DNA of 41,753 nt from Candidatus Doudnabacteria bacterium (GTDB lineage: Bacteria; Patescibacteriota; Doudnabacteria; UBA920; 2-01-FULL-46-14), in assembly GCA_023246055.1 (NCBI GenBank), contig JAHFJD010000004.1, positions 1 to 41,753 of the forward strand, written 5' to 3'. A program made the position numbers and the translations under genes. The notes below the pieces were generated by a model. It worked only from the letters and a program-made list of their open reading frames with translations, was not told the DNA's origin and ran no database searches. This document shows positions 34,102-36,969 of the stretch, piece by piece. Position 1 is the first letter of the stretch; each line of letters begins with the position of its first letter.

Positions 34102-34477
34102 CAATCATGTTACTTCGTAACAAAATTTCTAATTACTAATTTCTAAATAAATCCCAATGATTTAATTTCAAAATTAGAAACATTATTACGTGGCATGGAC
34201 ATTTCTGCCATGCTCTCTATGTCGCCATAGAGTTCAGACTATATCTTTACTCTCCTGTCATCCTCGGGCTTGACCCGGGGATCCAGAACTGGATTCCCGC
34301 CTTCGCGGGAATGACATCGAAAGATGTTGAGCGTGTAGTCGTTGAGGGTTCCTTAAAAAATTAAGATCTTCCCTGCTGATAATCCGCAATCGAAGATTAT
34401 TACGCAATAAATTACGTACTCCAATATACACGGGTTTTCCAGCATATAGCTCAATTTATAGACAGCTTTGGTCACTC
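34102..34477 (-). ncRNA. group I intron after U2604 (E. coli numbering), no ORF
   Basis: 5' exon ends in U, intron ends in G; IGS GCUGUCU pairs with exon AGACAGU; P10 GACCAA pairs with 3' exon UUGGUC; R CAACGACUAC, S GAUAUAGUC. Confidence 0.93.
34257..34315. repeat. family B element in P8 of the L2604 intron
   Basis: Approximate reverse complement of 20655-20710. Confidence 0.9.
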
Positions 34478-34570
34478 ACTGTCTCACGACGTTTTGAACC
34501 CAGCTCGCGTACCACTTTAATAGGCGAACAGCCTAACCCTTGGTAGCTTCTTCACCACCAGGATGTGATG

Positions 34571-35370
34571 CATGTAATTCCATTATTACTAATGGCATAG
34601 ACTATACCTTCATCCTGTTTCGCCAAAAACAGGAGACTAGCATGTGACTCCGACATTACGTCGGGGTCTCACCCTTTCGGGATCAGTCGTTACGGGGTCA
34701 AACAATCTTGTATTCCATCTGGGGTATTATTAATCCTTTGAGTAATTGACGCAATCGATTCATTGATTGTGATGGAATATAAGTAACTAAATACTTGCTT
34801 TGTTTATGAATTTTCGACTGGATACCAAGCGCTAATAACGCCTGCTGAATAATCTCATGTTCTATCGCTGTATAACTTTGAGTATTCAGACGCGCCGCGT
34901 TGCAATCGTTTCTGCGATATCCATCGTCCATAAACCAAGTCGCAAGAATTAGCGGAGTAATTATTCGCGGCAAGTTTGAGGGTACGCATTTTCGCTTCCC
35001 TTGATAGAAAAGCGAATAATATCCCTCAAGCATTGGTGATGTTTGGCTTCGAAAAACATAATGATGATAAAACTGATTAGTCCGTGCGTCGAATTGTTTT
35101 TTGTAAGCAATCTGACCACCGAGACTCCTCAATTGTGCATATTTCCATTCGACATAGGGTCGTTGCTTTTCGCTGTGGTCTATGATCAAACGAACATATG
35201 TCCCATTACGTTCCAGAAACCCGTCACCTAGTAATGTGCCAATAATAATCTCTCCTTGTCGACTTCCCACGGTATTGTCCATATGCTTCTGGATTCATTC
35301 TAGCATATGGAGTCCACCGTTATGAGCTAATTTTTTCGTTCCGGATTACTCCGGAAGCGACCCTTATTCG
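34571..35370 (-). ncRNA. group I intron after U2511, encoding a LAGLIDADG endonuclease
   Basis: Exon junction GUCGGCU|CAUCAC; terminal G; P AACGGUG, Q AAUACCGUG, R UAACGACU, S GGUAUAGUC. Confidence 0.92.
34698..35282 (-). CDS. double-motif LAGLIDADG homing endonuclease (I-SceI-like)
   Basis: IIIGTLLGDG and LATWFMDDG motifs. Confidence 0.92.
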   Translation of the reverse strand: MDNTVGSRQGEIIIGTLLGDGFLERNGTYVRLIIDHSEKQRPYVEWKYAQLRSLGGQIAYKKQFDARTNQFYHHYVFRSQTSPMLEGYYSLFYQGKRKCVPSNLPRIITPLILATWFMDDGYRRNDCNAARLNTQSYTAIEHEIIQQALLALGIQSKIHKQSKYLVTYIPSQSMNRLRQLLKGLIIPQMEYKIV

Positions 35371-35641
35371 AGCCGACATCGAGGTGCCAAACCCTGCCGT
35401 CGCTGTGGACGCTTGGGCAGGATCAGCCTGTTATCCCTAGAGTAGCTTTTATCCGTTGAGCTTCCACCATACCACTATGGATGGTCGGATCACTAACTTC
35501 CACTTTCGTGCCTGCGCGGCGTGCTTGCCTTGCAGTTAAGCCAGCTTATGCGTTTGCACGACCAGCGCGATTTCCATCCGCGCCTAGCTGACCTTTAAAC
35601 GCCTCCGTTACCTTTTAGGCAATTATGTTACTCGTTCTTCT

Positions 35642-35722
35642 TTCTCCCCTTCGTGAGGGGGAGATTAAGAGGGGGTTATGGAATTCATAACCTCCCCTAG
35701 CCCCTCCTCACGAGGAGGGGAA
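35642..35722. repeat. family A pair in the P9 region of the L2262 intron
   Basis: Same architecture as 24764-24865. Confidence 0.85.
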
Positions 35723-35792
35723 CGGGTACGCGCATTTCTGCCGCACTCTGCATGTCGCCATGCAGTTCAGACTATATCACTATCCTCACCTT

Positions 35793-35864
35793 GTCATGCC
35801 CGACCTGATCGGGCATCCAGACACAAAGGACTGGATTCCTCCGCCTTAGGCGGACGGGAATGAC
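35793..35864. repeat. family B element in P8 of the L2262 intron
   Basis: GTCATGCCCG...CTGGATTCC[TCCGCCTTAGGCGGA]CGGGAATGAC. Confidence 0.85.
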
Positions 35865-35913
35865 AGAAAAGGATACTCGGCGTGTAGTCGTTGAGGATTA
35901 TAATTTATGCTTA

Positions 35914-36156
35914 TCAAGATTCAGGTTGTCTATTCTCCAACCAATCTTTAATTGATGTTTTAACACCAACTACTATTCCGTTTTCAGTTATGGCCTCTTC
36001 ACCGGGTCTGAAAGCATAAAATTTACCTTCCGGCGAGATGACCCCCAGTCTGCCTTTTGCAGTAGTCCATTCTCCTTTTTCATTTTGACCAGGTTGAACC
36101 GTTAGTCTTTGTTCCGAGTCTGGACTAACTGAAAACTCTTTCCCTTTATTTGACAT
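35914..36156 (-). CDS. 80-aa intron-encoded protein of unknown function
   Basis: ATG with AGGAAAGGA SD; fills L6 exactly; same strand as the rRNA. Confidence 0.65.
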   Translation of the reverse strand: MSNKGKEFSVSPDSEQRLTVQPGQNEKGEWTTAKGRLGVISPEGKFYAFRPGEEAITENGIVVGVKTSIKDWLENRQPES

Positions 36157-36726
36157 AAATTATCCTTTCCTGCTGGTTGTCTGCACCAAGCTGATTTTCA
36201 CTTTGGCACATAAACCATTAATTAGGTTTATTATACCAAAGTACAGTTGGATACTCCAGATGTTCCAGCATATAGCCAAGTTTTTTTCTTCTAATGTTGC
36301 CATTAGAGGGCCCGGTATGACGCTTCCTCGACAAAAAGTCAAGGCGTAACGTATCGCGCCATACTTCCAGGCAACCGCCCCAGTTAAACTACCCACGAGC
36401 CACTGTCCCTGTGATGGTTAATCACGGGTTAGAATCAAAATTCATTCAGGGTGGTATTTCATATTGCGACTCCTCTCGAGCTAGCGCCCGAGACTCAAAG
36501 TCTCCCACCTATACTAAACAGAACAAATCTTGACCCAATGACACGCTATAGTAAAGCTTCATAGGGTCTTTCCGTCTTGCTGCGGGTAAACGGCATCTTT
36601 ACCGATAATGCAAATTCATCGAGCTATTTGTTAAGACAGTCCCCCACTCGTTATGCCATTCGTGCGGGTCGTAACTTACACGACAAGGAATTTCGCTCGG
36701 ACCATTGTTACTCATTCCGTGTAATA

Positions 36727-36817
36727 TTCCTCCCCCTCGATGGGGGAGGTTAGGTTAGGTGGGGGTGATTATTTAATAATTCACCCTTCCCTTGCCCCTC
36801 CCATCAAGGGAGGGGAA
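36727..36817. repeat. family A pair in the P9 region of the L1931 intron
   Basis: CCTCCCCC/GGGGGAGG...GGGTGA and TCACCC...CCCCTCCC/GGGAGGGG. Confidence 0.85.
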
Positions 36818-36898
36818 TAAATCCCGGAATTGGTGCGATCGTTTCCGTCGCACTCTCTGTGTCGCCACAGAGCTCGGACTCTATCTTCATCTTTGTCT

Positions 36899-36969
36899 GT
36901 CATCCCAAACTCGATTTGGGATCCACGTCATGAATTCCCTCCGCCAGATGGCGGATTCGCGGGAATGAC
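36899..36969. repeat. family B element in P8 of the L1931 intron
   Basis: GTCATCCC...GGGATCCA...ATTCCC[TCCGCCAGATGGCGGA]TTCGCGGGAATGAC. Confidence 0.85.

Follow-up and report, generated by a model that had tools for sequence, protein, structure and literature searches.

The 23S rRNA gene of a Candidatus Doudnabacteria bacterium (contig JAHFJD010000004.1) is interrupted by four group I introns, and three of these carry a double hairpin of one dispersed repeat family at the tip of their P8 helix. The stretch that was analysed, called the window below, has a length of 41,753 nucleotides. It is contig C50 of a 67-contig genome of 1.165 Mb (G000; 47.6% G+C, 92.8% complete). Positions given without a contig name are window coordinates. 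The labels L1931, L2262, L2512 and L2604 stand for sites in the 23S gene; labels of the form G0nn denote the genomes of relatives, and an L with three digits, such as L141, denotes a fetched locus.

The intron sites were set by BLAST of the exons against E. coli rrlH. They agree with the labels (L1931, L2262 and L2604) given to the three element-bearing introns in a first-pass annotation, which had been made from the sequence alone. These three introns score 59.7, 53.0 and 62.0 bits against the group I model RF00028, which has a gathering score of 50. None of them contains a LAGLIDADG gene. Introns at the same sites in relatives do bear such genes, within P6 in the case of L1931 and following P9.0 in that of L2262. 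The fourth intron scores weakly (26 bits) and has an intact LAGLIDADG_2 gene at 34698-35282. A 5S rRNA gene follows downstream of the 23S gene.

The L2262 intron also contains an open reading frame (ORF) of 80 aa in P6 (35914-36156, minus strand). It is absent from the same-site introns of relatives and has no match in Pfam or NCBIfam.

Table 1. Features of the window, and in-frame hairpin pairs on other contigs of the same genome.
Feature	Position	Strand	Basis or remark
23S rRNA gene, host of four introns	33800..39509	-	3' end approximate
Group I intron, about L1931, without ORF	36698..37126	-	BLAST against rrlH, RF00028
Group I intron, L2257/2263 (= L2262), without LAGLIDADG gene	35620..36373	-	BLAST against rrlH, RF00028
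Group I intron, L2604/2607, without ORF	34100..34477	-	BLAST against rrlH, RF00028
Fourth group I intron, about L2512; no double hairpin	34571..35369	-	BLAST against rrlH, weak RF00028
Double hairpin, P8 tip of L2604 intron	34256..34316	-	pattern, RF00028 alignment, folding
Double hairpin, P8 tip of L2262 intron	35792..35865	-	pattern, RF00028 alignment, folding
Double hairpin, P8 tip of L1931 intron; first half degenerate	36898..36970	-	pattern, RF00028 alignment, folding
Free double hairpin, filling most of an 80-nt spacer	20654..20711	+	pattern TGTCAT-N40-66-ATGACA
Three-hairpin "family A" repeat, P9 of L1931 intron	36725..36820	-	
"Family A" repeat, P9 of L2262 intron, where relatives carry a LAGLIDADG gene	35639..35728	-	
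In-frame pair within RsmH (MraW family)	C67:19427-19483		
In-frame pair within S-adenosylhomocysteine hydrolase (AdoHcyase)	C5:5983-6042		
In-frame pair within class I aminoacyl-tRNA synthetase	C33:16211-16269		
In-frame pair within LeuRS	C47:28107-28171		

The Double Hairpin in P8

In all three introns, the RF00028 alignments put the element into the P8 loop, as an insert with R on one side and S on the other, which is where the first-pass annotation had placed a double hairpin. Read in the sense of the RNA, the insert begins with GUCAU, followed by a hairpin of the NTS type described below, the sequence AUCCAG, a few bases, the sequence CUGGAU, a hairpin with a 5-nt loop, and finally AUGAC. 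The first hairpin is of the type UCCCGC-GAAG-GCGGGA and the second of the type CCCGGG-UCAAG-CCCGAGG. In each half, a (T)GTC tag leads into a stem of 8 bp whose first bases are AT; the loop has 4 or 5 nt, and CCAG forms the tail. The two halves face each other.

Folded as RNA, the P8 arms are predicted to form a basal P8 stem, a closing stem of GUCAU with AUGAC, and three hairpins. The folding z-scores of the three arms are -3.6, -4.8, and -3.0, and none of 200 shuffled sequences was equally stable. A contig from a DNA run covers the L1931 element together with both flanks (36795-37018) with zero mismatches; this run may be the window's own source sample.

A fourth copy of the element lies outside the introns, in a spacer between a class I/II aminotransferase gene (20721-21950; called kbl in the first-pass annotation) and a CofD/YvcK-family gene (19660-20640), both on the minus strand. 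It does contain the sequence ATTCCC-N8-GGGAAT that had been read there. The pattern TGTCAT-N40-66-ATGACA has four matches in the window, namely the three P8 inserts and this free copy. The mean in 100 shuffled versions of the window is 0.09, and none of them reaches four.

Identity of the Repeat

The element is an inverted pair of hairpins of a known kind, to which the CGTC-tagged REP (repetitive extragenic palindromic) sequences, the NTS and dRS3 repeats of Neisseria, and the Ssn-related motifs (SRM) belong. As described in the main text of PMC11893778, NTS is a longer version of dRS3 and serves as the target of SsnA, a single-domain GIY-YIG nuclease of 94 aa that cuts single-stranded DNA. 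A gene of the ssnA type is typically found between flanking NTS-like hairpins (PMC11893778, main text). The CGTC-tagged REP families include Neisseria dRS3 as well as Rickettsia RPE-4 and RPE-6, and they "apparently lack a dedicated transposase" (PMC3733652, main text).

The NTS consensus, CGTCATTCCCGCGMAVGCGGGAATCYRG, was taken from the main text of PMC11893778. It has no exact match in the genome with its first C, and four exact matches without it. These include 34289-34315 in the L2604 intron and 20655-20681 in the free copy. The first half of the L2604 copy agrees with the consensus at 27 of 28 positions, and the sole difference is the first base.

Across the genome, 43 halves were curated by eye. 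Their tags are TGTC (37), GGTC (3), CGTC (1), and others (2). The TGTC tag agrees with the published SRM pattern, HGTC, and not with a strict CGTC. The stems have a median of 8 uninterrupted pairs counted from AT, the tail is CCAG, and the hairpin loops have either 4 nt (GAAA, GAAG, or GGAA) or 5 nt (CTTGA). The Rfam model of the FtrB small RNA (RF02748) matches the L2604 copy with 39.4 bits, under its gathering score of 66.

The pairs resemble miniature inverted-repeat transposable elements (MITEs) in having complementary ends, TGTCAT and ATGACA, and in being present or absent at orthologous sites. There is no direct repeat in the flanks of the 14 pairs found in the genome, so the target-site duplication of a MITE was not seen. 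A REP-associated tyrosine transposase (RAYT) was considered as the mobiliser of the hairpin pairs and rejected, as no member of the corresponding Y1 transposase family, PF01797, turned up in the genome, which is 92.8% complete.

Dispersal through the Genome

The repeat is dispersed throughout the genome. The SRM pattern has 18 matches, compared with a mean of 4.5 (range 1-9) in 20 simulated genomes. A strict hairpin scan, which asks for GTCAT, an abutting stem of at least 5 bp, and then AT[CT], has 44 matches, compared with 6-15 in 10 simulations. Loose scans allowing one mismatch were noisy (79 matches versus 17-36 simulated) and served only as lists for the curation by eye. Of the 43 curated halves, 37 start with TGTCAT, and the genome total comes to approximately 43 hairpins, arranged as 14 inverted pairs plus solo hairpins.

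The stems vary in sequence, with 20 different 6-nt arms among 42 halves. Between an arm and its own partner, 7.55 of 8 positions are paired, compared with 6.19 when partners are shuffled (maximum 6.6 in 1000 shuffles), a difference that is inflated because the lists were selected by hairpin criteria.

Four of the 14 pairs lie in frame within long ORFs, in essential genes (Table 1). These pairs are 57-65 nt long, and their position argues for a spread of pairs without an ORF.

Inherited Once or Acquired Separately

BLAST between the three introns aligns only the region around R, P8, and S. Identity in the core blocks is 0.68-0.79 among the three introns and 0.73-0.82 between them and introns of other genomes. 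In a tree of the cores, which is relied on only for separating the L1931 intron, this intron groups with another subtype (support 100/99).

In other genomes of the order, introns at the same sites often lack the element. At L2262, the introns of four of four relatives (G044, G055, G014, and G084) have a short, plain P8 of 26-29 nt. The one in G055 is identical to the window's intron at 26 of 26 nt before P8 and at 39 of 39 nt after it. At L1931, no element is found in the P8 of G099, G044, G040, or G055. The G099 intron, whose P8 has 23 nt, is the closest to the window's in P1, P2, and the P6-P7 region. In G071 the P8 at this site holds 68 nt of other content. At L2604, the intron of G009 has no element and a P8 of 30 nt.

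The nearest relatives of the elements themselves are found elsewhere on the chromosome. Five of the six intron halves are most similar to a copy outside introns (identity 0.83-1.00), compared with 0.53-0.80 among the intron halves. The first half of the L2604 copy is nearest to the free copy (27 of 28), and the second half to C47:28107 (0.94). In the L2262 copy, the first half, which is long and of the NTS type, is identical at 35 of 35 positions to a solo copy at C17:9672-9706, and several non-intron copies are nearest to the second half (0.83). The second half of the L1931 copy is nearest to C30:51372 (0.93), and its degenerate first half finds a best match of only 0.71.

The three introns are not recent paralogs. 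A comparison of intron cores with elements had been proposed in the first-pass annotation; it gives cores that are not close paralogs, and elements that are nearest to different chromosomal copies.

Other Loops and Other Genomes

The genome has nine RF00028 matches in all. One is a group I intron in a 16S rRNA gene on C2, where a hairpin pair occupies P6 and a "family A" repeat, described below, occupies P8. This 16S gene (C2:6138-8873, minus strand) has three insertions, of approximately 930, 840, and 450 nt, and the intron is the last of them.

Among relatives, all 112 RF00028 matches of 100 genomes, taken as 98 loci (141 kb), were scanned on both strands. Members of the family occur in the loci of four relatives: G090, G004, G022, and G099. 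Seven of the 13 rows returned by the scan (L012, L034, L053, L057, L069, L081, and L113) were dropped as having other tags or other hairpins. An energy-based scan for whole pairs in the same introns missed pairs that are visible, and no count was drawn from it.

The helix that carries the element varies. In G004 (L042), the 16S intron at S516 has a pair in P5. In G022 (L110), the S516 intron has a pair at the same spot in P5 and in the opposite orientation, which means either two insertions or an inversion in place. The L1931 intron of G099 (L093) has pairs in P2, P6, and P9, the last of them reversed, together with its short P8. A metagenome intron at L1931 (L141) has hairpin pairs or solo hairpins in P2, P8, and P9.

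Larger collections were searched with a pattern that sits next to the R element and reads in the forward orientation only, and these results are left out of the comparison of orientations. In 185,579 species genomes there are matches at 9 places, 2 of them in introns. One is on the G090 contig, and the other is an L1917 intron of a Gottesmanbacteria metagenome-assembled genome, with a full pair in P8. A metagenome collection gives 11 places. Introns account for 5 of these, three with the Gottesmanbacteria sequence once more and two with the L1931 intron L141. The non-intron matches (7 of 9 in the genomes, 6 of 11 in the metagenomes) were discarded, since in genomes rich in NTS an R-like 9-mer lies next to a hairpin by chance.

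In the scans that are neutral to orientation, the three copies of the window, G090, and G004 read NTS-forward, and the elements in P5 of G022 and P9 of G099 are reversed. The first-pass annotation had noted a single orientation. This holds for the three P8 copies in the window and fails in general, with two reversed cases among relatives, and no orientation bias is claimed. That annotation had also suggested a repeated use of the loops L8 and L9. Recurrent colonisation of intron loops is borne out by the element-free introns at the same sites and by copies that are nearest to different chromosomal copies. A specificity for P8 or L9 is not, as pairs are also found in P2, P5, P6, spacers, and protein frames.

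A Second Repeat Family, and Coverage by RNA and DNA

The P9 arms of the L1931 and L2262 introns contain blocks that had been called family A, and these are real. Family A is a three-hairpin repeat, CCCCTC/GAGGGG, of approximately 90 nt, which BLAST finds in 61 bins of approximately 150 nt across the genome. It is a second dispersed family, more abundant than the NTS-type pairs. In the L2604 intron, P9 is AT-rich, as seen in the sequence only.

In two metatranscriptome runs, one of them from the sample whose DNA matches best, the exons are very deeply covered and the depth over all four introns is zero. Contigs assembled from RNA skip approximately 750, 804, and 402-421 nt at three introns, with matching sides of only 20-26 nt. 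They were rejected as proof of splicing, in view of the short flanks, the few foreign letters between them, and exons that are common to many organisms.

Over the L2604 element (34242-34355), DNA contigs reach a depth of 8334 in one run and 4176 in another, compared with 0-37 beside it (1.7-37 in the run with 8334). By this measure, the double-hairpin unit is very abundant in that groundwater community.

A Model for the Presence of Repeats in Intron Arms

The introns are enriched in the repeat. They make up approximately 5.3 kb, or 0.45% of the genome, and hold 4 of the 14 pairs (binomial P 4e-7). Restricting the count to the 9 pairs outside ORFs, with 116-300 kb taken as non-coding DNA, gives a P of 5e-4 to 1e-5; approximately 172 kb of the genome lies outside ORFs of at least 100 aa. 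The enrichment is real, and it fails to separate targeting from tolerance.

For a repeat that has been identified, that is dispersed, that is present at some sites and absent from the same sites in relatives, and that is enriched in introns, the explanation that is probably correct is the following: selfish repeat pairs without an ORF settled independently in tolerant ribozyme loops. In this model, the unit would be a selfish repeat dispersed through a genome of the candidate phyla radiation (CPR). Copies would have settled separately at the tips of peripheral helices, in introns that had lost their homing-endonuclease genes. The unit is predicted to fold alone into a compact junction that merely lengthens the helix. 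Splicing would presumably be unharmed, and the copy would persist.

The same logic would apply to copies in short spacers and to copies in frame in protein loops. Spread may proceed via single-stranded DNA, with the participation of one of the genome's small GIY-YIG (Ssn-like) nucleases. The enrichment would reflect tolerance rather than targeting; in a compact genome, intron tips are among the few sites that can freely take another 60 nt. The picture is one of endonuclease-free introns that gather the repeats of their genome.

Another model is that the element is a selected module, serving in RNA folding or protein binding, or that its insertion is targeted, with an Ssn site on single-stranded rDNA. 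The share of pairs found in so small a part of the genome would fit this model, as would the finding of hairpins at the same place in P8 of orthologous introns from other organisms, the maintenance of hairpins via compensatory changes, and the one orientation shared by the three window copies. Against it, the loops differ among the three copies (GAAG, CUAAG, AUCU), so that no tetraloop is conserved, and introns at the same sites manage without the element. The loop that is used varies as well (P2, P5, P6, P8, P9), the orientation is reversed in P5 of G022 and P9 of G099, and the double hairpin also occurs in protein-coding frames. SsnA, moreover, does not bind RNA (PMC11893778, main text). Selection or targeting of this kind is unlikely.

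A more specific form of aiming is that pairs are inserted via the single-stranded DNA of heavily transcribed, hairpin-rich rDNA, with an Ssn-type GIY-YIG nuclease helping. This seems rather unlikely too. If the pairs were aimed in this way, endonuclease-free introns would be preferred landing pads, with peripheral arms that the chromosomal repeat system remodels and may also exchange. The opposite orientations in P5 and the recurrence in P8 of orthologs would then be traces of repeated hits or of inversion in place.

GIY-YIG Genes and Hairpin-Flanked Cassettes

Besides UvrC, the genome encodes five single-domain GIY-YIG ORFs of 82-106 aa. One of these, a 95-aa protein at C43:12170-12457 (L002; PF01541, 64 bits), is enclosed by inverted ends, TGTCAT-hairpin and hairpin-ATGACA, which abut its start and stop. 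It is the only one of the five with inverted hairpins on both sides, and none of the five small GIY-YIG ORFs in this genome is flanked by an NTS-type pair. A family A repeat lies just upstream of the C43 gene.

Homologs of the C43 gene in G005 (L131) and G004 (L121) are likewise flanked by hairpins. An automated hairpin scan of 20 GIY-YIG genes of relatives flagged one hairpin (L120); the same scan missed the flanking hairpins that are seen by eye in three of four C43-like loci, and the other 16 loci are unsettled. In the G099 intron, the pairs in P2 and P6 are cassette-end subtypes joined by 7 nt. The pairs, by their sequence, appear to be the ends of Ssn-type cassettes minus the gene.

These observations bring up a third possibility, in which a GIY-YIG cassette of the Ssn type was once present in each P8 and the deletion of its ORF left the terminal hairpins as footprints. 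Filled cassettes with the same TGTCAT...ATGACA ends do exist on C43, in G005, and in G004, and the P2 and P6 pairs of G099 are of exactly these subtypes. Against this model, no GIY-YIG ORF was found in an intron loop among the 112 intron matches of 100 relatives and the 7 intron matches of the collections. In all 7 of the latter, the S element follows 47-54 nt after the hairpin, so these introns have no ORF there. In-frame pairs, furthermore, lie within essential genes, where a cassette could not have been. GIY-YIG proteins in CPR rRNA genes are reported from insertions unlike introns (PMC11270868, main text). The footprint model is therefore quite improbable.

A tblastn search with the five GIY-YIG proteins of this genome against 99 intron loci matched 7 loci. 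Four of these were inspected, and their ORFs are located either in 16S insertions that are not introns (L024, L110) or next to tRNA genes (L052, L055); for the other three, only coordinates were considered.

The 16S insertions with GIY-YIG ORFs are closed by a stem and are located near positions 70-100 and 455-480 (L024 in G039, L110 in G022). Small GIY-YIG genes also adjoin tRNA genes that bear group I introns, in L052 (G097), L055 (G093), and, by coordinates, L007, L012, and L076. In two loci such genes are found on both sides of the tRNA gene. The GIY-YIG genes beside intron-bearing tRNAs may be free-standing, intron-associated endonucleases.

A hairpin-flanked nuclease cassette had been among the suggestions of the first-pass annotation. 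As to the kind of element this was correct, given the filled cassettes in this genome and in relatives. It does not extend to the introns, in which no ORF-filled loop was found, and the in-frame pairs argue for ORF-less spread. As for the further idea of a link between intron mobility and the repeat system, nothing connects the repeats to intron mobility.

Weighing the Models

The last alternative, that one ancestral P8 insertion was inherited as a single intron was duplicated to three rRNA sites, would account for the 72.8% identity that the L2262 and L2604 introns share in a 169-nt alignment spanning R, P8, and S and for the shared orientation of the three elements, but it is very unlikely given cores that are no closer to each other than to foreign introns, an L1931 intron in another clade, same-site orthologs without the element, and copies that are each closest to a different chromosomal copy.

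Several points weigh against independent settlement in tolerant loops. The L2604 intron of G090 has a solo NTS hairpin at the same spot in P8, and the metagenome intron L141 (72% identical over 222 nt) has a full pair in its P8. Two of the insertions may be older and inherited with their intron, or P8 may have been hit recurrently. The core tree is mostly unresolved, with 118 usable columns and 9 of 16 inner branches open. The enrichment could equally mean that DNA which is structured or heavily transcribed is targeted. The analysis yielded no transposition event, no target duplication, and no mobilising enzyme, and the RNA contigs that skip the introns may come from other organisms. The hairpins that flank the C43 gene belong to another subtype than the NTS-type pair, and the inflated pairing statistics count on this side as well.

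Independent settlement of ORF-less pairs remains the preferred explanation, and it has several consequences. Repeats of the REP/NTS type, known from spacers and protein loops, would also nest often in the arms of CPR rRNA introns. Their positions provide a natural map of the group I ribozyme tips that accept 60-75 nt of foreign structure (P2, P5, P6, P8, and P9). They would account for some of the unusual length and sequence seen in CPR rRNA introns without an ORF. Finally, with five small GIY-YIG genes and approximately 43 hairpins in 1.16 Mb, the genome offers a compact test bed for the spread of Ssn-type hairpins.

Comparison with Known Systems

The repeat is of a known kind, and it reveals no new system and no new mechanism. 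In organelle genomes, palindromic and double-hairpin repeats, for instance those of Allomyces, reportedly invade the introns and spacers of compact genomes. Those repeats are unrelated in sequence and belong to organelles rather than bacteria.

For bacteria, nothing on repeats in group I intron arms was found in the literature, a search limited to main texts and not proof that such a case is unpublished. The main text of PMC11893778 contains neither "intron" nor "Patescibacteria", introns have 0 occurrences in PMC3733652, and the main text of PMC11270868, which deals with insertions in CPR rRNA genes, contains none of "repeat", "palindrom", or "hairpin".

The introns themselves are familiar. 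The group I introns with LAGLIDADG genes described for CPR rRNA share the insertion sites 1917, 1931, 2604, and others with those discussed here, and ORF-less introns are common in CPR, with 222 in 23S genes (PMC11270868, main text).

A close sequence relationship is with NTS/SRM and the Ssn systems (PMC11893778, main text). The first half of the element is NTS except for its first base, both halves are short tagged hairpins, and this genome as well as relatives have small GIY-YIG genes with such hairpins on either side. The present repeats differ from the Ssn systems as described there in their mostly TGTC tag, their arrangement as ORF-less inverted pairs, their CPR host, and their location in ribozyme loops.

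The FtrB small RNA of Francisella (RF02748; PMC3091763, in the part consulted) has the same two-hairpin unit, and its probe sequence has the NTS core. FtrB is an intergenic transcript whose deletion is without phenotype, in contrast to the match described here, which is below threshold and intronic.

Families 1 and 2 of the CGTC-tagged REPs (Di Nocera et al. 2013, PMC3733652, main text) share with the present repeat a stem of 8 bp that begins in AT, hairpin loops of 4 or 5 nt, and a CCA-type tail. Like it, they are mostly heterodimers, have some copies within genes, and have no dedicated tyrosine transposase. They differ in that introns are not mentioned for them in that text and CPR is not among the phyla it lists.

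A last example is provided by the Rickettsia palindromic elements (via PMC3733652, main text). These are also palindromic repeats that survive in frame within functional genes. They belong to another host lineage, and in the present genome copies are, in addition, nested in self-splicing rRNA introns.

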